Below, one piece after another: positions 35,409 to 59,801 of a DNA stretch of 64,000 nucleotides. The stretch is from assembly GCA_020024755.1 (NCBI GenBank), contig JAHHTH010000004.1:128024-192023 (forward strand), read 5' to 3'. How positions within the stretch are numbered: the stretch's first letter is position 1; each line of letters starts with the position of its first letter. Below the pieces are notes generated by a model, which saw nothing but the letters and a program-made list of their open reading frames with translations, was not told the origin of the DNA and ran no database searches. Origin of the DNA: Mycoplasmataceae bacterium (GTDB lineage Bacteria > Bacillota_I > Bacilli_A > Mycoplasmatales > Mycoplasmoidaceae). Both the position numbers and the translations under genes were made by a program.

Positions 35409-35418
35409 ATAAAACTCC

Positions 35419-36869: not shown

Positions 36870-36980
36870 GGTTATGCTTTTTTTCTATGTAGTGCTAATA
36901 TTTTCAGATGTTCTTATTTGATAATTAAGTTTTTATATTTTTGCCAAAAAATAAAAGAAGTAATTTATAATTTAACCAAT

Positions 36981-38236: not shown

Positions 38237-39187
38237 ATGATTAACTATATTATATTTGGAGCTAATGGTTTTGTAGGTAGAAATTTTATTTTGAAAAATA
38301 AACAAGATTTTATTTTCGCAATAATTTCTGATCATAATTCTAAAGATAGCTTAAATTCTTTTTTGAATGAAAATAAAATCCAAAGAGTAGAAATTTTAAC
38401 ATTTGATGAAGTGCTAAGTGACTATAAAAAATTTGGAAAACTTGAAAATAAAATTATATTGAATTTAGCTTGAAAAGCTACCTCAGGAGATGCTAGAAGG
38501 GATTGAAATTTACAATTTGAAAATGTAATTACACAAAGGAAAATATTAAATTTTTGTAAAAATATAGGTTGTCAAAAATATGTTGGATTTGGTTCAATTG
38601 CTGAAAAACAAATTTATAGAAGTCTTATGAACAATGAAACTGTAAATTTTAATAGTTATTATGCTTTGGCTAAATATTGTTCACATTTTGAAGCGACTTC
38701 ATTTTGTTCAGAAAATAAAATTAAACTACTTTGATTGCAAATTACTAATACTTTTGGAACATTTGAAAATTCAGCTCGTTTGATTAACACAATTTTAAGA
38801 AAAATTATTACATCACAAGAAAATCATGAAGTACTAGAATTTAATTTTTCGTCTGGACAACAACTTTATGATTTTGTGCATATAGATGATTGCATAGGAC
38901 TTGCATATAAATTTATAGAAACATGGCAACTGGATAACGAAGTACATTTATTGACTAGTAATGCTCCAAGAAAATTCAAGGATTATATCAATGATATTTT
39001 TAAGTTCATAAAATGCGAGAACAAAATAAATTTTAATGAGTCTAATAAAGTTGATATGTTTATGACTAAAGAGGACTACATAGATGATAAAATTAATAAT
39101 ATTAGCTTTTACAAATATAGATGAACATTTAAAGATGCAATAATTGATACATATATGCATATTAAGAAAGAAAAAGGAGAAAAATAA
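38237..39187 (+). CDS. NAD(P)-dependent SDR-family sugar epimerase/reductase
   Basis: Rossmann motif IIFGANGFVGRN and catalytic YxxxK (YALAK). Track ORFs 38237-38473 and 38735-39124 joined through TGAs. The stop overlaps the next ATG. Confidence 0.7.
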
Positions 39188-39954
39188 TGAAAGTTGTAAT
39201 TTTAGCTGGTGGATTTGGCACTAGAATTAGTGAAGAATCAGAATTAAAACCTAAACCAATGATTGAAATTGGAGGAAAACCAATCCTCCTTCATATTATG
39301 GAACATTATTCAAAATATGGGTTTAATGAATTTATCATTTGTGCTGGTTATAAACAATATTTTATCAAGGAATATTTTTCAAACTTTTTTTTGCACAACA
39401 CAGATGTAACTTTCGATCTAGCTAATAACGGTAAAACTATTTATCATGAATCTCATTGTAAGAATTGAAAGATCACAGTTGTTGATACTGGGCTAGAAAC
39501 TCAAACTGCAGGCAGAATTAAAAGGGTCGAAAAATATATTGATGGTGATGAATTTTTATTAACTTATGGTGATGGACTTTCTAATGTTGATTTAGGTAAA
39601 TTAATTAAATCTTACAGTAAAGACAAATTGGTTACTCTTACAACAATTCAACCAGGTGGTAAATTTGGTGTAATTGATATTGATGGTGATTCTAATGTAA
39701 AAGCTTTTAATGAAAAAACTAAAAATGATGGTGGATGAATTAATGCTGGATTTATGATTGTAAATAAAAAAGCATTATCATACATCAAGGATGACTCTGA
39801 ATCATTTGAATTTAATATTTTACCGATTTTAGCAAAAGAAGGAAAAGTATCTTGCTATAAACATGACGGTTTCTGAAAATGCATGGATACATTAAAAGAT
39901 AAAAATGAATTTGAAGAATTGTGAAAGAAGGGCAATGCACCATGAATAAAATAG
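39187..39954 (+). CDS. rfbF: Glucose-1-phosphate cytidylyltransferase
   Basis: MKVVILAGGFGTRISEES.LKPKPMIEIGGKPIL.HIM..Y...G..EFIICAGYK and a ...GFWKCMDTLKDK tail, typical of RfbF/DdhA. Frame joined through TGAs to TAG 39952. Confidence 0.9.
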
Positions 39955-41000
39955 AACTTGAAAAGTTTTATAATGGTAAAAAAATTTTTATAACTGGGTG
40001 TACAGGCTTCAAAGGTTCATGACTTTGTAGCATATTACACAAATTTGGTGCCAAAATCGTAGGATATTCTTTAGATGTTGAACACAATAGTCTATTCTAC
40101 AAATTGCATTTAAACAAAAAAATTAGATATGTAGAAGGGGATATTAGAGATCTTAAAAAAATGTCTAATGTAGTAAAAGAATGTAATCCAGATATTGTGT
40201 TTCATTTAGCTGCCCAACCATTAGTAATAGACTCTTACAAGGATCCTGTGTACACTTATGATGTAAATGTAATGGGTACAGTTAATATTTGTGAATCTCT
40301 AAGACAATTAAATAAGAAAGTTTCGTTTATAAATGTAACAACAGATAAAGTTTATAAGAATATTGAAAAAGATTATTTATACAATGAAGATGATAATTTA
40401 AATGGATATGATCCATATTCTAATTCTAAGTCATGCTCTGAACTAGTTACATCTTCTTACATTAATTCATTCTTTTATAAAACTGATATTATTACTTCGA
40501 CTTGTAGAGCTGGTAATGTAATTGGTGGTGGTGATTTTGCTGCTAATAGAATTGTTCCTGACACTATTAACTCAATTATCAAAAACGAAAATATAACCTT
40601 AAGATGTCCAAACTCTATTAGACCTTATCAGCATGTACTAGAACCTGTTTTTGCTTATGTTGATTTGGCTATGAAGCAATATAATGATAAGAGTGTTGCA
40701 AGTTCATATAATATTGGACCATCTAAACAAGATTGCATTAGAACTATTGACATTGCTACTAAGATTATTGAAAATTGAGATTCTAATATCTCAATTAATT
40801 ATACAGATGCAATATATCATGAGGCAGGTTTATTAATGTTAGACAACTCTAAGATATCTAGGTCTATTGAGTGAAAACAAACATGAAGTATAGATGAAGC
40901 CATCAAACACACAACAGAATTTTACAAAAGGACTTATAATGGCGAAAATTTTGAAGATGTGATTAATGAGCAAATTAATTTATTCTTAGGAGAAAAATAA
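39942..41000 (+). CDS. rfbG: CDP-glucose 4,6-dehydratase
   Basis: KIFITGCTGFKGSWL (TGA=Trp), YSNSKSC (YxxxK), RAGNVIGGGD, IRPYQHVLEP. Contains track ORF 40104-40778. Confidence 0.88.
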
Positions 41001-41557
41001 TGAAATTTGAACTTGTAAAAACTAAATTTAAGGATGCTTATTTAATTAAATATTTTAGAGCTAATGATAATAGAGGGGCATTGATTAAAGATTTTAACTC
41101 TATCGAATTTGAACAATTATTGGGATATAAGTTTAATCTAGTTGAAAATTTTTACACTATATCTAAGAAAGGAGTAATTCGAGCTATTCACTTTCAAGAT
41201 ATAAAACCCCAAAATAAAATAATTAGAGTTGTTAAAGGCAAAATCTATGACGTTATAGTAGATCTTAGACCTGACTCTGAAACTTTTATGGAATGAGAAG
41301 GTTGATACTTATCTGAAAATGAGAATATTGAGTTATATGTTCCAAAAGGATTTGGACATGGTTACTTAGTAATTGAAGATTCTATTGTTTCTTATAAAAC
41401 AGATGAAAACTTCTATGCACAATATGATACTGGAATTAGTTGAAATGATACTGACTTAAATATAAAATGGCCTCTTGACCAAGTTGAGAATGAAGTTATT
41501 ATTTCTGACAAAGATAAGAGTTTACAATCTTTCAAAACATGAAAATTACAACAATAA
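41000..41557 (+). CDS. RmlC-like cupin sugar-nucleotide 3,5- (or 3- / 5-) epimerase
   Basis: DNRGALIKDF, RAIHFQ, K.IRVVKGKIYDVIVDLR, GFGHGY. Translationally coupled (TAATG) to rfbG. Confidence 0.85.
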
Positions 41558-41795
41558 CTTTTTATTATTTAAATCAATTGTTTATTTTTCAAATTACATA
41601 TATTCATAAACTGCACTTTTGTATTAAGTAATATTAAAGATCTTTTAAATTAAGTTATATATAAATAGATATAACAATTATACTTAATATTATGGTTAAT
41701 ATTATGTAAATATTAGTAAAATATATTAGTAACTATAATTAGTTTTAATTGCTGCTGTTATCAAATGTAATTTAAGGAAATAAGGAAGGTTAATT

Positions 41796-42977
41796 ATGAA
41801 AAAATTAAATTGTCTAGTAATAACAAATTACAATTATGAATTTTGTGGTGGAGTTGAAAACTTTAATAGAATGTTATATCGTTCATTTCCAAATATTAAT
41901 TTTTTTGAATTTCCAATATTTACAAAAGAGGTATATTGCGATATTGAATTTAAAAATTTAACAAAAGTTGAAATATCACAAAATATACCATGATTGTTAG
42001 ATTACGATAATTGACCTAAAAAAATTTTTGGAAGTCGCGCATTACTAATTTTTAAAAGATTGTGAGCTCTGAAGAAATGTTCAAATCAAACAGGAAAAAA
42101 ATTAGAAAAAATAATTAAGAACAACAATATTGATATAATTCTTTTATCTGGTACATCGTTTTTTTGCAAAAAATTCTTTAAAAAATATAATAGAAAAATA
42201 TATTTTATTCAACATGATCATATTTGCACAATAAATACAAATTATTATTATGATAATGCTAAAAAATTATTTATACACTATAAGAAAAATTTTAAACAAA
42301 AAATTGCTCATAGATATTATTCATATGATTTTCCAAATATTATAAATAATTTTATTTGTAATGATAATGAGTCTCTAAAATTATTCTTAGAATGATATCC
42401 AAATAAAAATGTTTATTGTGCGCCATTAGCTTCAAAGTTTGAACCAGAATATACTACAACAGCAACTAAAAAGTATGATTTTATATCGCCTATAAGAAAT
42501 GCTGAGAAAAAGAATCCAGATAAAGTTTGAACTATTTTCAAATGTTTAGATAGAAAAGGTTTAATTATAGGTGATGAACACGGAAATTCAAGTTGAGGTA
42601 ACATTGAAAAGAAAGAAGCAATAAGTGATATTAATGAAGTGAAACAAATGTATAGTAAATCGAAATTTATGTTTTTAGCTTCTGATTATGAAGGTTTTTC
42701 ACTAGCAGCTTGTGAAGCGTTATCATTAGGATTGCCTTGCATCTTGCCTAACACATTCCCTACAGCTAAATATCATGTTGGTGAAAATAATGAAAGAGGT
42801 TTTGTGTATGACTTCTATGATACAACTGAAAATATAGTAAGAAGCATTGATGATTACATTAAAACAGTTAATTATGCTAAGGTTTCAAAAAAATGTGTAG
42901 AATTTGCAAAACAAAACTTTACAACTGAGATATTCAAAAAAAATTGGTCAAAAATTTTCAATGAAGCATGTAAGTAA
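41796..42977 (+). CDS. Glycosyltransferase family 4-like (GT-B)
   Basis: Track ORFs 41796-41993 and 42639-42977 are in one frame, and I checked that the gap is open. EX7E-type motif YEGFSLAACEALSLGLP. Paralogue of 47387-48523. Confidence 0.75.
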
Positions 42978-43015
42978 CTATTTTGTTGATTATTTATAAA
43001 GTGGAGGAAAAGTGA

Positions 43016-44044
43016 ATGAAACAAAGAATAAAGAACAAATATACTATTGGTATATCAGCATATAATACTGATATTAGTTTATTGAAAAAATGTATCGAAA
43101 GTGTTAGAAAACAAACATATCAAAATTATGAATTAGTTATTGTTGACAATAATTCAGATGATCAAGAATTGAAAAAATTTTATAAAAATTTGAAATTGAA
43201 AGACAATGAAAAAATCGTATATTTACCTAAAAATATTGGAATATATGGATCTAGAAATACTGTTATAGATAATTCGGAAGGTGATAGAATAGTTTTTTTA
43301 GATTCAGATGATTATATTTCTCCTAACTTCTTGCAAACTGTAGAAGAAAAAATGATTGATTGCAATGTATTACATTTTAATTATTATAAAATTGAAAAAA
43401 ATAATATAATAGCCAACGATTTCTTTTTTGAATATGGTGAACATTTTTTATATTCTACTACAACATGATCATTTGTGGTTGAGAGAGATTTTTTAATAAG
43501 AAATAATATTAAATTTTTTAAAATTGATCAAAATGAAGATGAATGCTTCTTGATGCTAATGTTAATTGAACCTAATTTAAAATTCAAATCAATAAGTGAT
43601 AAGTTATATTTTTATAATAAGTCTAACGAAAATGCACTTTCTAAAAAGTTTAACCCAATCAATTTGCTAAAAGCTATGAATCAAATTATTAAGCATGTAT
43701 TAGATGTCATGCATTCTAAAAAAATTAAGAAAATTCCAAATATTTTTTTCTATCATTTTTATAGATATATTTCTGTTTTTCCAATATGAAAGATAAGAGA
43801 TGGAGTACCATATAAATTATTTAGAAAGAATATAAAATATTTTAGAAGAATGAATAAAAAAGTATTTAGTATTAAAAATACAGAATTAGGATTAATTAAT
43901 ACTTTAGCAAGAAAATATTACTTATATTTTCCTAGATTAATATATAAAAAATATAAACCTAAAAATGATGTGAAGTCATTGTTATTAAATATTCAATCGA
44001 AACTAGACAATTTAATTGTTAAGGTTGATTCTATTTCGAAATAA
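43016..44044 (+). CDS. Glycosyltransferase family 2
   Basis: Three track ORFs in one frame. ISAYNTD...LKKCIESVRKQTYQNYELVIVDNNS and the DxD motif FLDSDD. Confidence 0.8.
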
Positions 44045-44274
44045 TAATACCAATTTTTATATTTATTTTTTTAGAATATTTATCATTTGATGAATTTAAA
44101 TAGCTACAATAATTTTTAAAATTACAGCAGATTAGATTTATAAACATAACAAAAATAAATAAAGTTAAGAATCATTTCAATTGCTGCTATTATCAGTAAA
44201 AGTTGAAATATTAGATTGTTAACTAGAAATGATATATTACGACATTTGAAGGATGTATAATAATTAGGAGTTCA

Positions 44275-45369
44275 ATGATGAAAAAAATTTTGATAATTAG
44301 TGAAACCAGTGAAGAAATAATCAATTCTCGTGTTGGCGGTATAGAAGTATATATTTACAATTTAAGAAAAGCATTAGAAAGCGACTATAATATTGAGATA
44401 ATTTCGTATGAAGAACTTTACAAAAAATTTGAACTTAAGTATAAAAAAGAAAATTCCTGTGAAAAAGTTATTAAATTAATTAAATGCCAATATACATGCC
44501 CATACTTAGATAATTTTGATCTAATCATCAATTCATCTTATGGAAAAGTACCAGAAAAATATCTTAATAAAACCTTATTTGTTATACATAATGATTTATC
44601 TACTTCTCACTATCAAAAACATAATATTCTTTATTATAATGATGAATATAAATCTTCAAGCAAAATTAAAAAATTCATTTTTAACATTTTAGAGAAATCA
44701 TTATATAAAAAAACTTTTTTATATCACCCAAAAGTTGTAACATTCAACAAATTTCATATATCACATGGTTTAAAACGTAAACAAACCATTTTTGGTTTAG
44801 TACCATTAGATAATAATATGAGTTTTGATTATAATGATTTTAAATCTAAGAAAAACGAATGTCTTTATATAGGAAGGTTGAATGATGAACAAAAAAACAT
44901 GAAGTTATTAGATGAGATTGCTAAAAAAGTTAGTTCTATTATAAATGTTGTAGGGGATGGACCTGATAAATTTTTATTAGATTCAGATAACTTTCACTTC
45001 TATGGATGAGTTGGTCAATCGGACTTTGCAAAATTAGGTATAAAAGATAGCAAAGTTGCATTATTTACATCAAATTATGAAGGATGTTGTATTTCAATGC
45101 ATGAAGTTATTAATTTAGGAATTATTCCAATTACTACATTCTCATCTCCTGAGGTAAATGTTTTAATTCCTAAACACCTTAAAAAATTATTAATTATAAA
45201 AGGGAAGAATAAAGCAACTAAATTTAAAAAATCAATAGAATTTATTTTATCACTATCTGAAAATGAATATAATAGTCTACGCTCTCAGATTAATGAAAAT
45301 TACAAAAAAACATATGGTCGCTCATTCTCAGATAATTGAAAAGAGATTGTTAAAAAAGAATTTGAGTAA
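44275..45369 (+). CDS. Glycosyltransferase (GT4-like, divergent)
   Basis: Track ORFs 44275-45009 and 45097-45339 are in one frame. KILIISE...VGGIEVY N-terminus and YEGCCISMHEVINLGIIP. Confidence 0.6.
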
Positions 45370-45589
45370 TTTAAAGTTTTATAATAATTTATAAATCTCT
45401 AAGTTCTTTAATAAGCTTCCCTATTTTGTCGATGATGTATTGAACTTAAATAAGTTATGATAATTCATTAAATAATATAATAAGTTAACATAATTTATCT
45501 GAAGTTTAAAGGGTAAATAGTTGAAACTCAATTTATTTTGTTTTGCATTTGTTAATATACATATCAAATATTGTATAATCTTATATATT

Positions 45590-46456
45590 ATGAAATTTAA
45601 TCAATTTAAAAGCAATCTCAGAATAGTTTTAAAATTTAGCATGGTAGACATTAAGAGAAGGTTTAAAACATCCATTTTCTCTTGGTTATGATTAATTGTT
45701 GGCCCAGCTCTTTGCATTTTTACATATTGATTTGGTCTAGGTTCTATTAGCGGTGATCAAGTAGATACAGTTCAGTACTTTATGCCAGATGGTATACGTG
45801 AATATAGATGAATAGTATGAATGCTTATTGGGACATTTACATGACAATACTGTGGAGATATGTTAGTTAGTGGCCCTTTTGCATGTTTGAGTTATTCATG
45901 AATGCCTAAAAGTTTTGGTTTATCTCCAAGTGTTCCACCATTTATAATTAATTTAAGTAGAATAATTACTGGTATTCCATGAATTGTACTTGCTTGAATT
46001 GTTGCTATAGTAGTTAATCTTAATGATCCTTCTTCATTTAACTCAGATGTGAATTTATATTCACTAGAAGTGCCTGTTGTTATAATACTATCAATTATTG
46101 CAATGAATATTTATTCATATGCACTTTCTCCATTAGCTTCAATATCTAAAGATTTTAGAGGGATAATTGGTATGATTCCAGGTTTGCTTACATGAATTAC
46201 TAGTGTTTTTATCCTTCCTAACGCTTTCATAAACTTACCACATGATGCAAGATATATTCTACTTCAAATTAACCCATTCAACTTTATAGTAAATGGGATG
46301 AGATCCACTATGTTAGGATATAGTGAATTATTTACTCCTAATCCATATATGACTTGATACTCAATTATGTCATTCTTTTTATGTTTTGCTATACTATTAG
46401 GAATTGGTTATTTCTTAAATAAAACTTCTAGAAAGTTTATTATTGATATTATTTAG
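45590..46456 (+). CDS. ABC-2 type polysaccharide/teichoic-acid exporter permease (Wzm/TagG-like)
   Basis: 288-aa frame with many TGA=Trp and six hydrophobic segments. N-terminus DIKRRFKTSIFSWLWLIVGP. Lies directly upstream of the cognate ATPase. TATAAT at 45573. Confidence 0.75.
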
Positions 46457-46464
46457 AGGTTCAT

Positions 46465-47211
46465 ATGAAAAGTAAAATGATGCATAACAATAAAATTGAT
46501 ATTGAGTTTGATAAGGTTTGTAAAAACTATTTCCTTTGTAAGAATGATTGAGAAAGATTAAAAACACTATTATTTTCTTGAGAACGTAAAAAAAGAATTA
46601 GACATACATTAGATAATATTTCATTCAAAATCCACCAAGGCGAAAAGGTTGCTATAGTTGGTAAGAATGGTGCTGGAAAATCAACAATATTAAAAGTAAT
46701 GGCTGGTATTACTATACCTAGTAGTGGAAAAGTATTAATTAAGAGAAAGTTATCTACATTATTAAATGTAGGTGCAGGATTTGAACCTGAATTTACTGGT
46801 AGAGAAAATGTATATATTAGAGGAACGCTATTAGGATTCTCAAAAAAAGAAATTGATAAGGCTCTTGATGATATTGTGGAATTTTCTGAAGTCGGTGAAT
46901 ACTTTGATATGGAAATGAAAAGATTTAGTTCTGGTATGTCTTCTAAATTGGGATTTGCTATCAATTTATTCTTAAATCCAGAAATTTTACTTGTAGATGA
47001 AGCGTTATCAGTTGGTGATGCTAAGTTCAATGCAAAGGCAAAAAAAGCAATCAATGACTTGTCTAAAAAAGAAAACTTAACATTAATAATGGTTAGTCAC
47101 AATGAAGAAACATTAAAAGGTTTATGTGATAGAGGAATATATATTAAAGATCATAAAGTTGCATTTGATGGTCCTATTAAAAAATGTTTAGAAATCTATG
47201 CAAAAGATTAG
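46465..47211 (+). CDS. ABC exporter ATP-binding protein (Wzt/TagH-like, short form)
   Basis: Walker A GKNGAGKST, signature FSSGMSSKL, Walker B LLVDEALSVGD, H-loop MVSHN. Contains track ORF 46699-47211. Confidence 0.9.
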
Positions 47212-47217
47212 GTGATC

Positions 47218-47310
47218 ATGAGATTTTCTATTCCCATTTATAAATATCCTAGTATATTAACTTGTGAAAAATCAAGACCAATTAAATTGAAAAACTTTAC
47301 CAATTTTTAG
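47218..47310 (+). pseudogene. Truncated N-terminal remnant of a GT2 glycosyltransferase
   Basis: 30-codon ORF MRFSIPIYKYPSILTCEKS... resembles GT2 N-termini (compare MRFFDIIIPSYNSDKLLTRCIES at 48556) and then stops. Confidence 0.35.
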
Positions 47311-47386
47311 ATTGTTAAATAATAAGTATATTAGTTATTAAATCATATAGAATGTTTTGCTGTCGATAAATGATATAATCACATAT

Positions 47387-48523
47387 ATGAATGTATTAGT
47401 GATAACAACATGTAACTACAACTATTTAGGTGGGATAGAAAATTATAATAGACTAATGTATACATCTTTTCCTGACATAAATTTTTACGAAATAGCTACA
47501 TTAGACAGAAAATTTAAAAAGCATTTTAAATTTAATAATGTTGAGAATATTGAAACAAGCATAAATTTAGATCCATATTTTGACGTTGAACTAGATTCAG
47601 CTTATCTTGAATTAAATAATGCGATGGATTTAAGAAAGAATAATAAGAAATTGTCTAAAAAATTGGAATCAATAATTAAGGATAAGAAAATAGATAAAAT
47701 ATTGATATCTGGATATGCTTTCTTTGACAAAAGATTCTTGAAAAAATATAGAAATAAAGTGATTTTTATTCAACACCTTCATATTAATTTTTTGAATTTG
47801 AGATTGTACTATTCTTTTGATCATAATAAATTTTTGGAAAGAAATGATTCTATAAAAAGAAAAATATTTAATAGGATTTTTGAATTTGACTTTGCAAAAT
47901 ATTGCTATAATTTTGTTTGTTGCGACCCTTACTCTGTAGATGAGTTAAGAAAATTTGCGAAGAATAAAAACATAGATTGAACACCTATAATGTCTAGACT
48001 TGTAAATAAGAATGAAGCTATTAGCAAAAAATATGAATTTATATCACCAATTAGAAATTCAAAAGAGAAATCTCCAAAAATGATTAGAAATATCATAAAT
48101 AATATCGGTAATAACTCACTAATTATAGGAACAGATTTTAAAGATAAGAAAGATAATTTTGTGCAATACAAGAGTGCTGTTTCAAATGAAAATGAATTAG
48201 CTTCACTTTATTGCAAATCAAAATATTTGCTTTTAGCATCTAGATATGAAGGGTTTTCAATTGTGTCTGGTGAAGCATTATCTTTAGGTTTACCATGTAT
48301 ACTCCCAAATACTTTTCCATCTGCAAGATATTTAGTGGGAAATAATGAAAGAGGATATATATATAATTGATATGATGACATTGGCACTATAAGCAAAAAT
48401 ATTCAATCTTATATTCAAGGAATAAATTATGAAATTGTGTCAAAAAGATGTATAAAATTTGCAACTGAAAATTTAGATAATAAAACATTTAAAAATAATT
48501 GAGAAAGAATCTTAAAAAGATAA
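47387..48523 (+). CDS. Glycosyltransferase family 4-like, paralogue of 41796-42977
   Basis: ATG 47387 lies just after TATAAT 47373. Track ORFs 47357-47980 and 47990-48370 are in one frame. Shares VITxxNYxxxGGxENxNRxxYxSFPxINF, KKYEFISPIRN and YEGFSIVSGEALSLGLPCILPNTFP with its paralogue. Confidence 0.75.
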
Positions 48524-48555
48524 TTTTATTTTATTGAAATTGTTATAATTTTTAT

Positions 48556-49473
48556 ATGAGATTTTTTGATATTATTATTCCTTCTTATAATTCAGATAAA
48601 TTATTAACTAGATGTATTGAATCTATAAGTGATGATGTATTTAAAATATCAAATGTCATTGTTGTGGATGATGGTTCAAAAGTTGATCAAAGTAAGTTTA
48701 TTCCAAAAAACAAACTCAATAAAATTGTTTTTGTAAAACAAAACAACTCAGGACCTAGTGGAGCAAGAAACACAGGAATAAAAGTATGTAAAAATAAGTA
48801 TATTATATTCGTAGACTCAGATGATATTATAGATTCCAACAAACTATTAAATTTACATAAGCAACTTATTACATTGAACATTGAACCAGATTTAATTAGG
48901 AATGGTTTTATTTGAAAGACACAAAATAAACAAAAATTGATATCTCATAAAAAACCTAAATTATATACAAGCAAAGAGAAATATTTATACAAAAACTTTA
49001 TTTGCAATTTATATTATTGATCCTCATGAACACATATATATAAAAGAGAATTTATATTAAGAAATAATTTATTTTTTAAAGATGGGATTATTGCAGAAGA
49101 TTTAGAACATACAATTAGATCTTACAGATATTTAAATACAATTTTTACTTCAGATATTGAATATTATATTTATGATAATACAAATGTAAACTCCATAACA
49201 TACCAAAGCACCAAAGATTTATCTGAGAATGTTGTAGAAATTATCAAGCAAAATTATGGAAATAAAGCCAATGATATAGCCTTGAATGACTTTATAAATA
49301 TTCTTTATAAGTGGAAAGAAAAATATATTTCTAAGGATAATAGATTCATTAAGAATATTAATTGGAAATTAATGTTAATACCATTTCATTGTTTAAGATA
49401 CAAAACTGGTTTTGTTACATCAGCTTATAAGTTGTTTATTCAAGCTCTTAAAAGTAAAAGAAAGGATTATTAA
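48556..49473 (+). CDS. Glycosyltransferase family 2
   Basis: FDIIIPSYNSDKLLTRCIESI, VVDDGS, GPSGARNTG and the DxD motif FVDSDD. I checked that the frame is open through TGAs. Confidence 0.8.
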
Positions 49474-49475
49474 TT

Positions 49476-50441
49476 ATGAAAATTTCTGCAATATTACCAT
49501 TTTATAAATTAGAACCATGATTACTTCAAAGATGTATAGATTCTATTTGCTCTCAAAACTACAAGGATTGAGAATGTATCATAGTAGATGATGGTTCTCC
49601 AGAAAGATTAGATTTAAAATCATATAATTTGTGGGGCTATGACAAAAAATTTAAACTCATAAGAACTGTAAATCAAGGAAGACCTCAAGCTAGAAATACA
49701 GGTTTTTTGAATTCTACAGGTGATTTAATATGATTCATAGATCCTGATGATTATATTAGACCATTAGTTGCATTTGACAAAATTATCAAAATGTTCAAAT
49801 CCAATGATGTTGATATTGTAAATTTTAGTTTTTATGAATTCACTGATTTTGAAAAATCAGAATCAAAAAATAAGTACACTGGTATAGTTGGGAATAATTC
49901 AGAACTTGATATTACTTTACTTAATGGTTGAAGAACTGAATGAAGAAATGTATATAAAAGAAAATTCTTATTAGAAAATAAAATAATGCACCAAAAATAC
50001 AAAACAATATACGAAGATGTATATTGGGATTTATTAGTAAAAACATATGTGAAAAGTATTTATCTCTCTGATGAATTTCTATATTTCTATGATAGAAGAA
50101 GACACACAAGTATTACAAATACAAAAATGGGTACAAAAAAAATTCAGAATATATTTAGTGTCAATATCACAGAAGCTTATCAATATATAAAACCAGATAG
50201 TGATTCATTATTTTATCTTCATTTGATTTATTATTTTGCTTCACTTCCATATTTAAAAGATAAGGAAATAAAGAAGAACATTGTTCACTATTTTAAATTA
50301 AATAAACAAATTAAATTATCCTGAAAGAAAAAAATTTCACTATTTATTATTAGATCTTATATATTGACACTATTTTACAAATTTACTTTACCACCAACAG
50401 TTTATATATTAACAATCTTGAAACATAAGATAAATTCATAA
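49476..50441 (+). CDS. Glycosyltransferase family 2
   Basis: ISAILPFYKLEPWLLQRCIDSI, IVDDGSP, GRPQARNTG and the DxD motif FIDPDD. Contains track ORF 49986-50324. Confidence 0.8.
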
Positions 50442-50806: not shown

Positions 50807-51370
50807 ATGGCAAAATCAACATGTTTTATTTCATATTCTCATGAGAAACAGAATAAAAAGAAATTTAATGCCTTATGTAATATGATAAATAATTCCAAAA
50901 AATTGGATAATTATTCTGAAAGAGATGATAAATCAAAACTAACTGATGAATCTATTTGATCTTATTTATATAAAAGAATATCTGGTGCAACTATTACAAT
51001 TGTATTACTTACAAGAGACCTATTCTATGAAAATAAAGATAAGATAAATTATAAGAGGGGGAGTTTTTTAGAATCAGGATGAATATACAATGAGATTTGT
51101 GCCTCACTTAAAAACAAAAAGAATAATAGTTTAAATGGAATTATATGTGTATTCGATGAAGCTGTTGAAAAAATAATAGTTGATGGAAATAATATTATTT
51201 TAGATAGACTTCCAGAAATTCTTGCAATGAATGCAGAATATATTGTTTGAGCTAGATATGATGATTTTATGAACAATCATTTATCATACATTAATTCATC
51301 TAAACAAAAACGTCTTAACCAAATAAAATTGACAAAATACAAAATCAATTACGGATTACACAAGAGGTAG
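50807..51370 (+). CDS. TIR-like domain protein (DUF1863 / ThsB-like), copy 1
   Basis: 187-aa frame through TGAs reading CFISYSHE, ESIWSYLYKRISGATITIVLLTRDL, ESGWIYNEICASL and LNGIICVF. Confidence 0.78.
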
Positions 51371-51490
51371 AAAATGATTGATAAATTTCTGTCAATTTTA
51401 ATAGTTTATGAGTGATATTAATTTATTGATAGATAACTAAATAACTTGAAATTTAAATGATATATAACTATTAAAGAGGTATTTAATTTA

Positions 51491-52033
51491 TGGCTACAAC
51501 ATGTTTCATTTCATATTCTCATGATAATATCAATAAAGAAAAAGTAACAAAAATTTCAAACATAGTTAATGGCTCTTCGAAGCTAATTAATTTTTCTGAA
51601 AGAGAAGATAAATCTATGTATTCAGAAGAAACTATATGAAAATATTTGCATGATAGAATTGCAGGATCAACATGCACTATTTTGTTCCTCACTGAGGATT
51701 TACTAACATATAATAATTACAAGTTAGGATATGTTAGAAATAATTTTATTGAATCAGGATGAGTTTATAATGAGATATCTGCCTCATTAAGGGATTGAAA
51801 AGATAATAGAATAAATGGAATCGTTTGTGTAGTAGAAGATCATCTTGCTAGTTATATTGCAGATTCTTCAGGCAAAATTGATGAGAACAAACTTCATGAA
51901 ATACTTGCTGTCAATTCTGAATATATTGTATGAGTTATGTATAGTGAATTTCTTAAAAATCCACATGAGTTTATTGATATTGCAAAAGCGAAAAGAGATG
52001 AACAAATAAAGTCGGGGGAATTCCGCCTATAAA
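51491..52033 (+). CDS. TIR-like domain protein (DUF1863 / ThsB-like), copy 2
   Basis: 180-aa frame reading CFISYSHD, ETIWKYLHDRIAGSTCTILFLTEDL, ESGWVYNEISASLRDW and RINGIVCVV. Confidence 0.78.
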
Positions 52034-52088
52034 ATAGTTTATGATCTTCATTCTAGATAATCAATGCTAATTATAGATTAAACAAATT

Positions 52089-52112
52089 AATAGTATCTTT
52101 TCAGATACTATT
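52089..52112. terminator. Bidirectional hairpin between convergent genes
   Basis: Perfect 10-bp stem AATAGTATCT-TTTC-AGATACTATT between the stops at 52033 (+) and 52135 (-). Confidence 0.6.
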
Positions 52113-52134
52113 AAGAATTAGATAACAAGATAAT

Positions 52135-52632
52135 CTATCTTATTAATATTGTTATTATTAAGGCAACAATGTCAATTGCTAAAATATTGATTCATAGTAG
52201 GCTAACTCAAGATTTATATTTTTTTATTCTAAATTTAAAGCTTCCATTTGCCTTTTCCTTTAATTGTTTTTTAGATTGAATGTAGTTTATTGAAGCTATT
52301 TCTTTTCAAGGATTTTCTTTATTGCATAATTCTTCTAAATTTATTTCAAGTAGATTATTATATATGTTGACAAAAACTCTTTCATTATTTAAGTTTACTG
52401 CAAAGCAATAGAACATCACAATTGTTGTTAATACCATAATCCCAGCAATTGTGATTCTTGCATAGTTTATCATATTCAATGAAAAAATTAAAGGCAATAA
52501 TATCCCAGAGATAATCAGGTTAATTGATAAAAGAGTATAACCTATATTCGATAATCTTGTAATTGTAGATTGAATATTATTTAGTCTGTTAATGTGAAAA
52601 TTACTAATTTGTTCTATGTCATGTTTCTTCAT
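52135..52632 (-). CDS. Small three-TM membrane protein downstream of TIR copy 3
   Basis: Track ORF 52306-52632 extends through three TGAs to TAG 52135 (165 aa). Hydrophobic helices LLSINLIISGILLPLIFSL, ITIAGIMVLTTIVMFYCFAV and WVSLLWINILAIDIVALIITILI. Its start lies 8 nt after the upstream stop. Confidence 0.6.
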
Positions 52633-52640
52633 GTGTTTAC

Positions 52641-53252
52641 CTATCTATTATGAAAATCATATTTTATTCAATATGTATTATTTTTTATATGATCATCTCT
52701 TTTTCTTCTTGCATCATCCAATCAGCTATCTGTTTTTTGCATAAATTGTTCATATGTACAGACAGTTATGAAACTAGTCGTTGGATTATACTTACAATTA
52801 TCTATTGATGCACCTACTTCTCTAACGCCTTTCATATTATTTATATTTGCATTAATTATTTCTCTTTCATGTTTATATAAACTATTTTTATATGATTTAT
52901 TTGATGTGCAATCTACAATAAGCAAACCATTTATTCTGTTATTATCTCAGTCCCTTAGGGAACATGATATTTCTTTATATACCCAACCTGATGACATAAA
53001 ATCATTACCTGGTAATAATTTATGTCTATTTGTCGATATTAAATCATCTGTAAGCAATAAAACAGTTACTGAAGAACCTTTGATTCTATTCTGTAAATAT
53101 TTTCATATTGTTTCATCTGAACAATGAGATCTATCAACTTTTTCACTATAATCATATGCCAATCCCTTTTCCGTCATATGAGATACAACTCTATCTTTTA
53201 ATTTTTCATTTTCATTTGTGAACGAAAATGATATGAATGTGTTATTAGCCAT
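52641..53252 (-). CDS. TIR-like domain protein (DUF1863 / ThsB-like), copy 3
   Basis: ATG 53252 after AGGAG. 203-aa frame containing track ORF 52722-52925 and reading FISFSF, ETIWKYLQNRIKGSSVTVLLLTDDL, SSGWVYKEISCSLRDW and RINGLLIV. Confidence 0.78.
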
Positions 53253-53541: not shown

Positions 53542-54195
53542 ATGGAAGATTTTATTGATAAATTTGAAGCAATAAGTAAAAAATCATATTTAGAAGAAAA
53601 TGATGAATATGTTAAACACATAGAGGTAGGCTTAAAACAAATTGATAAACTATCAAATATTTTATTACCCTATGAAATAAATGTAAAAGCACAATCATGA
53701 TATAAAAACATTGTTGAACTCCACTTGAAAGATGCTTACAAATTCTATGAAGATTGTAAACGCAATGACATTAATATTGCAAAAAGTAATGATATATGAA
53801 TTAGAAAAAATTTTAAGAGTTTTATGTCTGAAGTTGAAAAATTTACTAAATTCTTTGTTAAATCATGTTCTGAAGAAAATGCTAATGATTTTTGTAAAGC
53901 AATTGATTCTATTAAAAAAGTAGTTAATAGTAATATTGATATATTTCCTTGTGACATACAAATGAATGAAACTATTGAATGTATATGCAATCAATTACAC
54001 CATTGAAGACAAGTGTACAATAAAAATAAACATGAATCAGATCATATGGATAATGTATATTATTTTAATAACAATAAAGATACATTAAATATTGTTGGTG
54101 CAAGTGTATTAGAATATGTTTCTGATAGTATTTACCAAATTATAATGCCGTTGCTATTCATTTTAGTTCAGATAAAAGAAAGACAAGATAAATAG
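53542..54195 (+). CDS. Hypothetical protein (217 aa, helical, Cys-rich centre)
   Basis: ATG 53542. Track ORFs 53824-54006 and 54013-54195 are in the same frame, joined through TGAs. No family recognised. Confidence 0.5.
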
Positions 54196-54922: not shown

Positions 54923-54963
54923 AAATTTGTAAAATATGTGTTATAGTATTTTTGGAGTGTACC

Positions 54964-55413
54964 ATGGACTTAAAAAGAAGATTAAGTGATTTACATCTAG
55001 GAATTACTGAATTATCAGAATACATTCATATTTCTAGACCTACATTGTATAAGTTCATTTCATTATATGATTCAAATAATAAAAAAGATGTTCCTAACAA
55101 CATTACTAAATTGTTTGATTTTATAATGAAAAATGAGCTAATAGGTAAAAATAATGTAATCAATTATATTTTCAATGAAATTTTATTAATCCGTAAGAAT
55201 GATAATGAATTAATTAATCAATTAGTTTTTTTTGATAAGAATTCAAAAAAATATAAATTCATTGAGCATATAGTTTCGCATAATAACATGGACTCCATAG
55301 TTTACTTTTTGGTTGATATTATAAACATTAGTTCTAAAACTAAAAGATCTGATAGTGAAAAAAAGAAATTAGATATCTACGAAGAAATACTAAATGAAAT
55401 TAAAGAGGGGTAA
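54964..55413 (+). CDS. Putative helix-turn-helix DNA-binding protein
   Basis: ATG 54964 lies 7 nt after GGAG. The N-terminus LGITELSEYIHISRPTLYKFI looks like an HTH. Ends 6 nt before the OLD gene. Confidence 0.55.
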   Translation: MDLKRRLSDLHLGITELSEYIHISRPTLYKFISLYDSNNKKDVPNNITKLFDFIMKNELIGKNNVINYIFNEILLIRKNDNELINQLVFFDKNSKKYKFIEHIVSHNNMDSIVYFLVDIINISSKTKRSDSEKKKLDIYEEILNEIKEG

Positions 55414-55419
55414 TTTATT

Positions 55420-57264
55420 ATGAAGTTTAAAACAAGTAAGTTTATATTCAAAAATTTTAGAAATATTGGAATTAAAAGAGAAGAGTATTTTAATATTGGA
55501 AATTATTCTGAAGGATGTGGAAATAAAAATGGTGATTTGGTCATTATAATTGGAGCAAATAATACCGGTAAATCAAACATTATAGATGGGATTTTTAAGT
55601 TTGCAAATAATGCAATTGATATTAATAGAGATAAAACAAATTTAGATTTTGATGAAGATAGAAAGAATATATCTATAGATTTTGAGAATAGCAAAACTCA
55701 AATAAAAAACTGCAACAACAAGATCGATATTATTAGTAATGATAATAAAGAACGTCTTGAATTACTAAAAAAAGAGTTCATAGAAATTGCAAGAGAAAAA
55801 TTTTCTAAAGAAGAATTTGAATGTATGAAAATGTATATACCTAATGAGTCACTAGATGGTTTCCTTGATGTAGTTCAAAATATTGGATATTCTTTGAGCA
55901 TTAATTGTGGGTACTTTGGAGGTCCTTATAGTTATCGCTACAATAATATTTCAATTAACAAAACTAATTTGTCAGAATTTTCTTCCTTTACTAGCAATTT
56001 TAGAAAACTATATGATAGTGTTAAAAACAAAAAAATTCCTTTTAAAGTATTAAAATATAGCGATCAAAACCAATTTAGTAATTCAGATTTAAGAATATCA
56101 TTAGATGCAGCATATATAAAGCAAAACAATTTTTGAAGAAACTTATTTGCAAAAATTGATTTTAATGTTGAGGAACTACAAAATTCAGCACAAACTGCTA
56201 CTACTCAGACTAATTATGGAATCCTTGAAAAACAAGAAGCAAAGATTAATAAATTATTAGAAAATAAAGTATCAAAAAAATTTAATAAATTATATACATT
56301 TGGAAAAACAAATTATGAATTTAAAGTTAGAATAGAAAGCAATAATATTAATTTGTTAATATATGAAAATAATGAACCTATTACGCTAGAATATCAATCC
56401 ACAGGATTCAAGTGATTCTTCACACTTTACTTTAATAACATTTTAGAAACTTTAACTAATGGAGATATTTTACTACTAGATGAACCAGGAGTTTATCTTC
56501 ATGCTAACGGACAAATTGAATTAAGAAAGTTTCTTAAGCAATTAGCTAAAGAAAAAGACATTAATATAATACTGACAACTCATTCTCCATTCATGATTGA
56601 TTTAGATTATCTGGATGAAATTAGAACTGTAACTAAAGTGAATGGCTGTATTAAAATCAATAATAAATTTTCTCTAATTGATATTCCAAATCCCGATGAA
56701 AGTGATGATCCAGATAGTATAGATGTATTAAATGAAATTAAGTCAGCTTTAACTATTAGTAAAAATGTGTTATTCAAGGAAGAATCTAAAGTATTCTTTG
56801 TTGAAGGTATTACAGACTATAACTATTTAACTGGAATGAAACAAATATTAGGGGAAGAGTATAAAGATTTAATCTTTCTTCCGATAAATGGTTTAGGTAA
56901 AGATAAGAAGCAACAACAATTGATAATTGAAAAAATAGTTAAATTATGAAAATATGAACCAATTATTTTAACAGATTCAGATGGTGAAAATGGGGTTGGT
57001 AAAAAATTCAAAAAATTAGTAGAAGAACTAAAAGCAGGATTAACAGTTTTGAATCTTGATGATTTGGTTGAATCTTTCAGTGGCACAATTGAAGATGTAT
57101 TCTCTGAGAATGATAGAAAAAGAATATGCTTTGATAGTGAAGGAAAATTACAAAAAACATTTAATGCATCTGCATCATTTAAAAAATATGCTGATTCACT
57201 TCAATTAGAAGAAGAAACTATTAATAACTTTAAAAAAATATTTGATAGTTTAATGTTACAGTAA
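55420..57264 (+). CDS. OLD-family nuclease (ABC-type ATPase + C-terminal Toprim)
   Basis: Three track ORFs in one frame (614 aa), with gaps checked. Walker A GANNTGKSN, QSTGFKWFF, Walker B LLLDEPGVYLH, TTHSP. Toprim glutamate FFVEGITDYNYL and DxD ILTDSDGENG. Confidence 0.85.
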
Positions 57265-57564: not shown

Positions 57565-59025
57565 TTATCTTTTAATATTAAAATCATTTTTTCTAGATGA
57601 TGGTATAAATTTATTTTTGAATTGTTGTATCTTGTATTTAATAAATTTATCATATTTAATTACAATTCAGTATAAAATAACATCCACAATAAAATCAACT
57701 AATAATCCGAATCCAAACATTAAAGCTATTGATTCGAGTGATGGGATTCATGCACCAGTCTTATAACAAATATAGTAAATTGGATAGAAGATTAAATTTA
57801 CTATTATAGTCTGAAGCAAAAAAATACCAATTCTACCTTCTGCAATGAATCATGCATCTAATGGTGAACTTAAAGCATAACAAATATAGAAAGCGAATAG
57901 TAACATGATAATCTTATAGACAGAAGAAGCATCATCTACATTCATAATAGTGTGAATAAATGGTTTATATGCAGGAATAGTAATAGCTCAAATTAAAATA
58001 AAGACAAGTGTTAAACCATAGTAGAATGTCATTTTATAATTTCTATCTTTTATAGGGTCATCAAAGATAACTTGAGAAGCATATGTTTCTTTTATGAACA
58101 GAGATAGCATTGTAATAGGCATTAACATTCATGTTCAAATAAAACTATTGGCTACTCAGTAAGTTCCTTGTTCTCCAACTAGTGCCATCATTTTGATGAT
58201 CATATATGAAAATACCACATTCCTAATAAGAGTTTCGGCTCCAGCTAACAGAAAGTTTTTAAAATATAGAATAATATTCGATTTGTTAAATAAGAAACAA
58301 TTGTCTAACTTATAAGTAAACATAGCACTGGATGGCAATAAAAAATAAATTATACTAGCTAAAAGAAATAATACACTTGATACTATTGAACTTATTCCAA
58401 GACCTTTATATTCTAATTTTAATGAGAATGAATTGTCACTTACAATAAATAGGTCTAGCATTGTATTGGAAATTAAATATAAGGCATTGACTATTATACC
58501 CATTCAAAGATAACCAGGTAATCTCAAAATAGAGAATGAAACAATTAAATAACTAGCAAAGTTAGTTAAGAATATAGCCCAAACTTGATACATCATATAT
58601 TCAAGTGACTTGGATCTAGTTATTGAGTCCAGGTTAGCATTATCAAGAATTGGATTTAAGCAAGCAAAGATAATGATGCTAAATAATAAGAAAAGTCCAA
58701 AAACAATTAAAGTTAATGATGTAAATGAACCCTTTATTTGTTCACTTACATTTTTCTCTTCATCCATCTTATCCTTAATTTTTGATAATCAAAAGAACAT
58801 TGGGACAATAATCGCTTCTGTAATTATTTCATAGGCAATATTCAATCATTGTATTTGAGATGCAATAGTATAACTAGAACCATCATTTATATCACCAATA
58901 AAGTATATTCTTACTGTTTGATAGATTGCAGGAATTAAAATTGTTAAAGCAATAATCAAAAATAATTTTCAATTAAAGTTTTTAAGAAATAGTTTTCAAT
59001 CATTTTTATTTAGTTTTATTTTCAT
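57565..59025 (-). CDS. MATE / polysaccharide-flippase-like multi-pass transporter
   Basis: 486-aa frame joining track ORFs 58156-58503 and 58504-58767 through many TGAs, with ~12 hydrophobic segments. The family call rests on size and topology plus MatE-like loops only. Confidence 0.55.
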
Positions 59026-59069
59026 ATAATACACCCTCTTATAATTATATTGGCAACTAATTATTTATT

Positions 59070-59460: not shown

Positions 59461-59781
59461 TTAATTATTACTTAAAATGTCAAATAACTCCTTTGTAGTA
59501 TATCCTTCGTCTGAATGATCACTATTACACTTTACGTGAACAGCTCTGAGATTTTCTAATGCATCAGTACCACCTTTGCTTTTAGGAATAATGTGTTCTA
59601 CATTTCATGAATAAAGTGTATTTCTCTTTGATTCATTTCCCCAATAGCAACTTCATAGCATTTTACCACCGCACAATGGACATGTTCTGTGGTTTTCAAC
59701 GGTGCAATCTTCTTGGTTGCAAGTGCAATAGTTTGCTTTATTTCATATTTTTCTTAATTTTGTTTCATTATACTTTGGCAT
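59461..59781 (-). CDS. Small HNH endonuclease with CxxC zinc knuckle, cassette 2
   Basis: ATG 59781 lies 7 nt after AGGAGG. 106 aa reading TKLRKIWNKANYCTCNQEDC, CPLCGGKM, WNVEHIIPKSKGG and NLRAVHVKCN. Paralogue of 26772-27041. Confidence 0.85.
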
Positions 59782-59801
59782 AATCATGCCTCCTATAATT
59801 A

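Follow-up and report, generated by a model that had tools for sequence, protein, structure and literature searches.

Type V Thoeris combines a ThsB protein with an effector that has three transmembrane (TM) segments, ThsF, and uses 3'cADPR as its signal; ThsF is predicted to form a channel-like oligomer with positive pockets, and one of the validated type V systems was unresponsive to 3'cADPR (10.64898/2025.12.03.692087). This type, described by Yirmiya et al. (10.64898/2025.12.03.692087), is here equated by synteny with the PADLOC candidate system PDC-M50. Several divergent ThsB genes share one locus in the type I system of Bacillus dafuensis (ThsA + TIR1 + TIR2), in which TIR1 and TIR2 give an additive phage range (10.1101/2021.01.06.425286). 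In type II, ThsB is associated with a TM-Macro effector and the signal His-ADPR, and in type VII with the SLATT effector ThsH and the signal cADPR. No report of Thoeris in Mollicutes was found in the literature searched.

The 64,000-nucleotide stretch of a Mollicutes chromosome analysed here (the window) contains three ThsB-type TIR genes, called T1, T2 and T3, and the gene of a small protein with three TM segments, called TM (Table 1). They probably form a Thoeris-type abortive-infection module of the type V kind, made of ThsB sensors and a ThsF-like three-TM effector, inside a Mollicutes defence-gene cluster. As in type V, a TIR gene is coupled directly to a small (135–165 aa) three-TM protein, the effector has a module homologous to PDC-M50A (N-terminal helix, TM1, TM2 and post-TM2 helix) with the signature R...(N/Y)LxxE(R/K)xFRxxY in common, the genes are set amid defence genes, and no enzymatic effector domain is present. 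Unlike type V, the effector of the window is very divergent, with a longer cytoplasmic middle region, and belongs to a family confined to Mollicutes with code 4, for which the Pfam DUF2270 label was not reproduced. The TIR proteins fall into the BdThsB1-like clade PDLC00438, whereas the plasmid type V TIRs fall into PDLC00430, and ThsB genes number two to three, compared to one in type V. The presence of several divergent ThsB genes recalls type I, of which BdThsB1 (PDB 9vyl) is the closest solved TIR and has the same C-terminal extension past the TIR core; in contrast to type I, no SIR2-SLOG ThsA was found among the 18 ORFs scanned in the window, and the putative effector is a membrane protein, not an NADase. 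A small membrane effector also adjoins the TIR gene in type VII, in which TIR-TM-TIR layouts occur (Agrobacterium, locus L017), but for TM no homology with either SLATT or DUF4231 could be detected. The membrane-targeting mode of killing would be common to type II, although no Macro domain was found here in the ORFs scanned and the sensing part would have to fall within the approximately 90 cytoplasmic residues of TM.

Table 1. Coordinates of the features of the candidate Thoeris module in the window
Feature	Position	Strand	Description	Remark
T1	50807..51370	+	Short-type ThsB TIR, 187 aa, GWIYNE with Glu96	Putative sensor/signal synthase
T2	51490..52032	+	Short-type ThsB TIR, 180 aa, Glu95, C-terminus cut by frameshift	
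T3	52641..53252	-	Long-type ThsB TIR, 203 aa, Glu94	Upstream of TM
TM	52135..52632	-	165-aa three-TM protein, putative membrane effector	ThsF/PDC-M50A family, divergent
Hairpin	52087..52114	no strand	Perfect 12-bp, AT-rich hairpin (TTAATAGTATCT-tttc-AGATACTATTAA)	RNA fold

The four genes are open solely under genetic code 4 (TGA=Trp). Code 4 finds support across the window: stop-to-stop open reading frames (ORFs) of at least 100 aa add up to 24,750 aa with table 4 compared to 12,910 aa with table 11, at a GC content of about 25%. The table 11 reading was dropped, as it fragments the ORFs, leaving for example only 50 aa at 50807–50959, and code 4 makes them whole again. Each of the four genes possesses three to four in-frame TGA codons, and TGG is nearly absent. 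Under table 4 the limits and lengths of T1, T3 and TM given in the preliminary description were exact, as were the 8 nt that it had counted between the T3 stop and the TM ATG. The second TIR ORF of 180 aa was real, but it lies at 51490–52032 and not at 51491–52033, one base away. T3 is the first gene of a T3-TM operon. The whole locus was 100% identical in L022, a contig originating from another sequencing run (SRR14298095).

The three TIR proteins matched the PADLOC ThsB1 model PDLC00438 with E-values of 1e-20 to 1e-23 (4e-20 for T1, 7e-21 for T2 and 4e-23 for T3). With the Pfam model ThsB_TIR, whose gathering score is 21.2 bits, T2 obtained 26.9 bits, T3 barely passed with 21.4 bits, and T1 stayed under the gathering score with 16.9 bits (E=0.009). 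T1 and T2 were 49% identical, and T3 showed 34–37% identity with either of them; from their sequences the three are true paralogues. Outside the window, T1 was 45–51% identical to the short-type ThsBs of two related loci, L001 and L002, T2 was 67% identical to L2_S, and T3 was 53% identical to the long ThsBs of L001 and L002, whose genes stand ahead of a TM gene. The TIR family profile matched BdThsB1 (9vyl) over nearly the full length with E=1.5e-16. The AF2 model of T3 (pLDDT 76, pTM 0.80) retrieved the same protein with Foldseek (9vyl_A, E=2.9e-8, TM-score 0.70), followed by many TIR domains. The shared motifs by which the preliminary description had recognized ThsB-type TIR proteins were all found in the three sequences, and the assignment was upheld by PADLOC and by the resemblance to BdThsB1 in both sequence and fold. 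The catalytic-type Glu that had been placed in the Trp...Glu helix is kept in all three proteins: it is invariant in GW(I/V)Y(N/K)E (E96 in T1, E95 in T2 and E94 in T3) and its counterpart in the alignment to 9vyl is the Glu of W-E-I-S. It would be the equivalent of the catalytic E85 of B. cereus ThsB, for which an E85Q precedent exists (10.1101/2021.01.06.425286). A Shine-Dalgarno-like AGAGGG precedes T1. In T2 a late frameshift, absent from the preliminary description, is located at the G5 run 52014–52018. Translation in the following frame yields NSAYKIVYDLHSR-stop, the C-terminal motif conserved in the family, and the displaced remnant of this conserved tail covers approximately 52031–52060; the frameshift region is identical in L022.

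Hydropathy (windows 30–40, 57–64 and 140–147) and the AF2 model (helices 6–49, 56–95 and 142–164; pLDDT 87, pTM 0.75) agreed on the three hydrophobic helices announced for the 165-aa ORF, at approximately 31–52, 58–79 and 141–163. The distribution of Lys and Arg residues (four in the N-terminus, none in the loop and 12 in the middle region) favours a predicted N-in topology. Family alignments showed conservation of Q21, R26-L27-S28, N80-L81-x-N83-E84, Y91, K121-K122 and S141. The TM family corresponds to no Pfam or NCBIfam family. Against the PDB, the TM model found at best generic helical bundles (E=0.8), and no sequence relative of the TM family, nor of SLATT, was present there. The annotation of defence genes in Mollicutes largely fails, with an effector outside Pfam and NCBIfam families and genes that go unseen when the standard bacterial code is applied.

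The relationship of TM with a catalogued candidate family became visible at the level of family profiles. The PADLOC PDC-M50A HMMs matched the TM protein of the window with only E=0.003, and matched 11 of 16 TM relatives with a best E-value of 9e-9. When the TM family was compared to PDC-M50A with hhalign, the probability was 96% (E=4.8e-9, 81 columns) over residues 11–96, which is the N-terminal two-TM module only, the C-terminal half being not alignable. Reciprocal HMMs built for the two families matched 17/19 and 6/8 members, and both matched the protein of locus L041. Judged from these profiles, over residues 11–96, the TM family is homologous to the PADLOC candidate PDC-M50A. Synteny is the basis on which PDC-M50A would correspond to the type V effector ThsF: Table S1 of the preprint labels partner TIRs of both the Klebsiella type and the Nostoc type 'DUF2270 - Type V' (10.64898/2025.12.03.692087), one PDC-M50A protein (hhalign 100%, E=3e-41) follows a TIR that shares 66.7% identity with the validated type V TIR of Bacillus sp. 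1NLA3E, and another adjoins a TIR with 48.6% identity to a validated type V TIR. Proteins of the PDC-M50A family adjoin TIRs across many phyla, and the pairs are found on plasmids amid R-M, DISARM and TA genes. Pfam PF10028 (DUF2270), by which ThsF is labelled in the preprint, matched none of the 16 mycoplasma members at E<=1, nor any of nine synteny-defined PDC-M50A/ThsF-like plasmid proteins. This mismatch, which also affects the reference set, may reflect noisy label propagation, which the authors acknowledge. The statement in the preliminary description that the architecture could be mapped onto no described system is not supported, given the homology of the TM family with PDC-M50A and the correspondence of the latter, by synteny, to type V ThsF. 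As far as can be told from sequence, TM is probably a very divergent member of the effector family described for type V, and the module a new lineage of a known system and not a new kind. A search for the '3TM' class of the survey by way of a 3TM-associated TIR led instead to type IV caspase loci.

The TM family is rare: 1.84 billion proteins contained 18 representatives of it and 5.8e9 contained 21 clusters, and all the named sources are Mollicutes. A scan of GTDB species representatives recovered three Metamycoplasmataceae MAGs only. The preliminary description had suggested looking at whether homologues of the TM ORF are recurrently linked to TIR genes. This was the case: a ThsB gene adjoins the TM gene, often overlapping it, in 11/11 distinct loci (12 modules) examined, namely the window (=L022), L001 (two modules), L002, L005, L006, L007, L008/9, L023, L024, L040 and L041. 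The operon order is long ThsB - TM - short ThsB in L001 and L002, and L040 is a two-ThsB variant. Taking this operon as ancestral, T1 and T2 of the window are inverted.

We propose the following sequence of events during infection. The phage would be sensed by at least one of the ThsB TIR proteins (T3, T1 and possibly T2), and the conserved Glu of GW(I/V)Y(N/K)E would serve to turn NAD+ into a signal derived from ADP-ribose. The most likely signal would be 3'cADPR, because it is used both by the closest solved TIR, BdThsB1 of type I, and by the closest effector family, ThsF of type V. Its nature is uncertain, since the TIR clade differs from that of plasmid type V and since one validated type V system does not respond to 3'cADPR. 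The cytoplasmic, basic and membrane-proximal part of TM would then bind the signal, by means of its R26-bearing N-terminal helix, the helix NLxNE(R/K)xFxxxY that comes after TM2, and K121/K122. By analogy with ThsF, the TM protein, probably assembled into a ring-shaped homo-oligomer, would breach the membrane and the infection would be stopped. The several divergent ThsB copies may broaden the range of phages that are sensed. A ring of the ThsF type, with positively charged pockets between protomers, would fit indirectly with the basic and polar residues that are conserved in TM (R26, K121, K122, N80, N83 and E84).

The catalytic Glu is conserved, no SIR2, SLOG or Macro partner was found in the ORFs scanned and TIR NADase effectors are known in bacteria, so that the TIR proteins might act alone in depleting NAD+, in the manner of SpbK, TM being an accessory (anchor, regulator or unrelated protein) and not the killer; such TIR NADase cases had to be filtered out in the preprint (10.64898/2025.12.03.692087). 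This explanation appears improbable in view of the strict association of the TM gene with a ThsB gene, of the homology between TM and a family found beside TIRs across many phyla, and of the TIR proteins themselves, which are of the ThsB class and closest to the signal-producing type I ThsB. The preliminary description had left the choice between stand-alone NAD-consuming TIR proteins, which the TIR-TM linkage disfavours, and a stripped-down effector. The latter was right insofar as TM is likely an effector, conserved and linked to ThsB, but TM is a full-length protein of a dedicated family and not a reduced ThsA. It is very unlikely that TM is instead a SLATT-domain effector, which would turn the module into a type VII Thoeris (ThsH) signalling with canonical cADPR. 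TM does resemble SLATT in its general layout of an N-terminal helix followed by two TM helices and a cytoplasmic helix, one member of the TM family matches the PADLOC RT-associated SLATT model with E=4e-4, and TIR-SLATT systems are common, including TIR-SLATT-TIR layouts such as L017. Nevertheless, SLATT membership was rejected after four tests (Pfam, NCBIfam, hhalign and HMM cross-search): 0 of 16 or 19 members matched the Pfam/NCBIfam SLATT/DUF4231 models at the thresholds used, hhalign gave 0.1% against TIR-linked proteins that were confirmed as DUF4231, SLATT_1 and SLATT_3, and the HMM cross-search produced 0/4 matches. PDC-M50A compared to SLATT with hhalign was also negative (0.5%).

The T2 frameshift and the T1/T2 inversion suggest that some of the module may be in decay. 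The locus is nonetheless unlikely to be a remnant that is inactive, in part or as a whole, and may no longer defend. The frameshift removes the conserved YDLH tail of T2, the gene order departs from that of L001 and L002, and the window locus was not recovered in the GTDB species-representative scan; against this, T3, TM and T1 are intact, keep every family-invariant residue and have Shine-Dalgarno-like sequences, the core ThsB-TM two-gene unit of distant relatives is preserved with a spacing of 8 nt, and the sequence is 100% identical in the contig from another run. Since Mollicutes live in association with hosts, and since some bacterial TIR proteins, such as TcpB/BtpA, are known to disturb the signalling of the host, the module might not be directed against phages but be a host-directed or inter-bacterial TIR virulence or toxin system of a parasitic mycoplasma, with TM serving in export or immunity. 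The chances of this are slim: inspection of the TIR sequences revealed no signal peptide or secretion-related feature, the proteins are of the ThsB and not of the Tcp class, genes of defence are found next to the module (OLD-like ATPase, RloB/AAA_21, HNH), and R-M genes in related loci, and the homologous PDC-M50A pairs lie on plasmids amid R-M, DISARM and TA genes. We also considered that the Mollicutes branch might constitute a functionally distinct Thoeris subtype, with obligate two-sensor or heteromeric TIRs, a signal other than 3'cADPR, a lineage-specific sensing region in the effector and an adaptation to wall-less cells, which seems unlikely. That reading draws on the conserved triad of long ThsB, three-TM effector and short ThsB, which is found in L001 and L002, in rearranged form in the window, and as a two-ThsB variant in L040. 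Its sensing region would correspond to effector residues ~97–140, which are not alignable to PDC-M50A, and in wall-less cells any membrane breach would be lethal at once.

A type V-like module in the window would extend the TIR-based immune signalling of Thoeris to Mollicutes, with their tiny genomes and different genetic code; for the field at large, such an enlargement of a known system would be expected and no surprise. The very divergent sequences that TM and its relatives add to the ThsF/PDC-M50A family narrow the conserved core to R...(N/Y)LxxE(R/K)xFxxxY, flanking two TM helices, which makes this motif a target for mutagenesis of the putative signal-binding or gating site.

The profile scan of 18 window ORFs, unassigned or neighbouring, found no SIR2, SLOG or Macro domain, in agreement with the earlier remark that ThsA is missing, and no ThsA (SIR2-SLOG or TM-Macro) appeared in the gene tables of related loci. 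AAA_15/OLD-like, RloB/AAA_21, HNH and Fic genes are present near the module, and the other ORFs of the window were judged from their sequence to be ribosomal, housekeeping and glycosyltransferase genes. A functional link with the neighbouring AAA_15/Toprim ATPase was rejected, as the ATPases that adjoin related loci are no orthologues of it (23% identity or no match). The 217-aa ORF at 53542–54195 was likewise discarded as a part of the module, having no family match and being absent from related loci except the identical contig. The hairpin of Table 1 lies in the 102-nt gap that separates the convergent T2 and TM genes, and was missed by the terminator scan, which requires GC. When 52033–52134 was folded (MFE -17.8 kcal/mol, z=-2.4), the centroid structure retained the hairpin, and it is possible that it acts as a bidirectional terminator.

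Translated with the standard bacterial code, the region was fragmented; positions 50807–50959, for instance, gave only a 50-aa ORF. In code 4, with TGA read as Trp, the long open frames of the window (GC content about 25%) totalled 24,750 aa as compared to 12,910 aa under the standard code, and the three ThsB-type TIR paralogues T1, T2 and T3 and the three-transmembrane gene TM were intact. All four have three or four TGA codons in frame and hardly any TGG. The window contains a ribosomal-protein operon, a polysaccharide/sialic-acid locus and, after these, a defence-type gene cluster, and this gene content together with code 4 therefore identifies a Mollicutes chromosome. Read in this way, the four ORFs were found where the preliminary description had placed them, with the T3 stop 8 nt ahead of the TM start and the quoted TIR motifs in the ORFs. 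T2 was present on the plus strand, its start and end each being shifted by one base.

Coordinates of the features in the window
Feature	Position	Strand	Remarks
T1	50807-51370	+	187 aa
T2	51490-52032	+	180 aa
TM	52135-52632	-	165 aa
T3	52641-53252	-	203 aa
AAA_21 + RloB-like pair 1	24347-25708/25708-26646	+
AAA_21 + RloB-like pair 2	60379-61587/59802-60392	-
HNH gene, after pair 2	59461-59787	-	108 aa
AAA_15 ATPase	within 54952-57264	+	614 aa; OLD/Toprim-like C-terminus; PADLOC AriA 2e-22, Old 2e-16
Fic/DOC-family protein	21214-22260	-	DUF7625-like C-terminus; Pfam 3e-16
ORF	28052-29704	-	550 aa; no significant Pfam match
ORF	31153-32097	+	314 aa; no significant Pfam match
Membrane protein ORF	23324-24199	+	291 aa; no significant Pfam match
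Membrane protein ORF	57565-59034	-	489 aa; no significant Pfam match
ORF	53542-54195	+	217 aa; no significant Pfam match
Polysaccharide locus	32081-36051 (-), 36126-50441 (+)		NeuB/NeuA/NeuC-like, many glycosyltransferases, ABC exporter; assigned by eye

The assignment of the three TIR proteins to ThsB was borne out by profile and, for T3, by modelled structure. All matched the PADLOC ThsB model PDLC00438 (E=4e-20, 7e-21 and 4e-23 for T1, T2 and T3, respectively), and T2 and T3 exceeded the gathering score of Pfam ThsB_TIR, T1 falling just under it. A profile built from T3 relatives, T1 and T2 had a single match among solved structures, nearly full length, to 9vyl (E=1.5e-16), a record described as “BdThsB1 with NAD” / “cyclic ADP-D-ribose synthase TIR1”. 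The AF2 model of T3 (pLDDT 76, pTM 0.80) retrieved the BdThsB1 chain of 9vyl with Foldseek (E=2.9e-8, TM-score 0.70), with dozens of TIR domains ranking after it. Residues G89, W90, Y92 and E94 (T3 numbering) were invariant in the family, and the conserved Glu was present in every window copy (T1 E96, T2 E95, T3 E94).

The ThsB paralogues split into two subfamilies, 30–40% identical to each other. The long type comprised T3 and the genes 5' of the TM gene in the compared loci L001 and L002 (53% identity within the group), and the short type comprised T1, T2 and the genes 3' of the TM gene in the same loci (45–67%). T2 showed a late frameshift at a run of five G (52014–52018); the next frame encodes NSAYKIVYDLHSR followed by a stop, which is the C-terminal motif that the family conserves. 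The same T2 sequence was carried by L022, a contig from another sequencing run, 100% identical to the window locus over 4,360 nt. The G5 tract could mark a mutation that truly inactivates the gene, or it could be phase-variable.

The TM protein matched no Pfam or NCBIfam family, and no relative was found in the PDB by sequence or fold. Its family was small: a set of 1.84 billion proteins contained 18 representatives (50% identity) and one of 5.8 billion contained 21 clusters, and all named sources were Mollicutes (Mycoplasmopsis columbina SF7 and Metamycoplasmataceae MAGs). The confident AF2 model (pLDDT 87, pTM 0.75) showed a long helical hairpin (6–49, 56–95), short helices and a C-terminal transmembrane helix (142–164). 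Hydropathy gave three transmembrane segments, and the distribution of K+R (four in the N-terminus, none in the loop, twelve in the middle region) indicates an N-in topology. The conserved residues (Q21, R26-L27-S28, N80-L81-x-N83-E84, Y91, K121-K122, S141) were concentrated at the cytoplasmic membrane boundary.

Our first hypothesis, that TM is a SLATT protein like the ThsH effector of type VII Thoeris, was rejected: the profile-profile probability for the mycoplasma family was 0.1% against TIR-linked plasmid proteins confirmed as DUF4231, SLATT_1 and SLATT_3. The PADLOC candidate effector family PDC-M50A matched the window protein weakly (E=0.003) and 11 of 16 relatives, the best with E=9e-9. 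Alignment of eight PDC-M50A plasmid proteins with the mycoplasma family by hhalign gave a probability of 96% and E=4.8e-9 over 81 columns, spanning residues 11–96 of the window TM protein (N-terminal helix, first two transmembrane segments and following helix) and a common signature, R...(N/Y)LxxE(R/K)xFRxxY. Reciprocal HMM searches matched 17/19 and 6/8 members, the L041 protein being matched by both HMMs, and the SLATT controls (PDC-M50A against SLATT, HMM cross-searches) were negative. The homology of the two families therefore does not stem from the shared composition of membrane proteins.

A C. botulinum plasmid protein encoded 3' of a ThsB gene was a full-length PDC-M50A (E=2e-31), and tblastn with it located the family on 137 plasmids of many phyla. 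An annotated TIR gene lay beside or near PDC-M50A in seven of eight sampled loci; the exception, from Streptomyces (L037), had a separate adjoining HIT-domain gene and no annotated TIR. On a Rhodococcus ruber plasmid (L036, 833–1723), a PDC-M50A-like two-transmembrane module was fused to a HIT domain 3' of a TIR gene, resembling the type XI arrangement. Because of these two HIT associations, the module may be shared between Thoeris effector classes.

Thoeris types V–XI were defined by Yirmiya et al. (bioRxiv 10.64898/2025.12.03.692087). Type V consists of ThsB and ThsF, the latter an effector with three transmembrane segments, for which a channel-like homo-oligomer bearing positively charged pockets is predicted. 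In Table S1 of that work, Klebsiella-type and Nostoc-type TIRs are labelled “DUF2270 - Type V”; the plasmid neighbours that we found were PDC-M50A proteins. Among Priestia TIRs, one sharing 66.7% identity with the validated type V TIR of Bacillus sp. 1NLA3E had a PDC-M50A directly 3' (hhalign 100%, E=3e-41), and a second, sharing 48.6% with the validated TIR of B. thuringiensis, likewise adjoined such a protein. On this synteny PDC-M50A was equated with ThsF. All nine synteny-defined partners belonged to PDC-M50A and had no Pfam family; neither they nor the mycoplasma TM proteins matched Pfam PF10028 (DUF2270), so the label was not reproduced on the partners. The authors themselves warn that effector labels, propagated from representatives, are noisy (10.64898/2025.12.03.692087).

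A ThsB-type gene adjoined the TM gene, often overlapping it, in every locus read: the window (=L022), L001 (two modules), L002 (=L003, L004), L005, L006, L007, L008/9, L023, L024, L040 and L041. Distant relatives had a plain ThsB-TM two-gene operon; the order is the reverse in L023, and in L041 the two genes converge. The layout of the window's clade was long ThsB, TM, short ThsB (L001, L002), and two ThsBs preceded the TM gene in L040. In the window the short type was duplicated (T1, T2) and inverted, converging on T3-TM, with a perfect 12-bp hairpin at 52087–52114 in the gap. ThsB plus TM is thus the core unit, on which the additional TIRs elaborate. In L001, an HNH gene (2302–2574) lay within the module, between a TM gene and a short ThsB; it was 46% identical to the window HNH, located 6 kb from the module next to RloB.

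The best-supported reading of the window module is a type V-like Thoeris. The idea of TIR sensors with a small membrane effector and without ThsA was right; the architecture, previously considered undescribed, most likely maps to ThsB + ThsF by family homology and synteny. Infection would activate the ThsB sensors, which would use the conserved Glu to produce an ADPR-derived signal; the signal would bind the basic cytoplasmic face of a presumably oligomeric effector with three transmembrane segments, which would then breach the membrane. Everything mechanistic here, beyond family, fold, topology and linkage, we infer. The signal is most likely 3'cADPR, as the closest TIR with a solved structure (type I BdThsB1) uses it and so does the closest effector family, in the type V system of B. 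thuringiensis (10.64898/2025.12.03.692087). This suggestion is a tentative one, because one validated type V system gave no response to 3'cADPR (10.64898/2025.12.03.692087) and the window TIRs belong to another clade than the type V TIRs on plasmids. The divergent ThsB copies plausibly widen phage recognition, as do several ThsBs, TIR1 and TIR2, in B. dafuensis (10.1101/2021.01.06.425286). There is a small chance that behind the conserved triad of long ThsB, TM and short ThsB, and the cytoplasmic region that does not align, lies a signal of another kind or a heteromeric sensor.

The novelty lies in lineage and divergence: within the effector family this is a code-4 branch, confined to Mollicutes and missed by current annotation resources. 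In contrast to plasmid type V, the effector is here coupled to another ThsB clade, and the sensors number two to three. The searchable literature yielded no account of Thoeris in Mollicutes.

The polysaccharide locus lies directly upstream of the defence cluster, and the window holds two separate AAA_21 ATPase and RloB-like pairs (AbiL/RloAB-type) and five sizeable ORFs without significant Pfam match. Within 54952–57264 (+), a 153-aa HTH-like ORF precedes the AAA_15 ATPase. ATPase-Toprim genes also occurred near the modules of L001 and L023, non-orthologous to that of the window (23% identity or no match). Other TIR-flanked membrane proteins were seen on the C. perfringens plasmid NZ_CP065633.1 (L021: caspase, TIR, 8xMP [PF24838, E=4e-31], TIR) and on an Agrobacterium pTi (L017), where two TIR genes flank a double SLATT_3+SLATT_1 protein.
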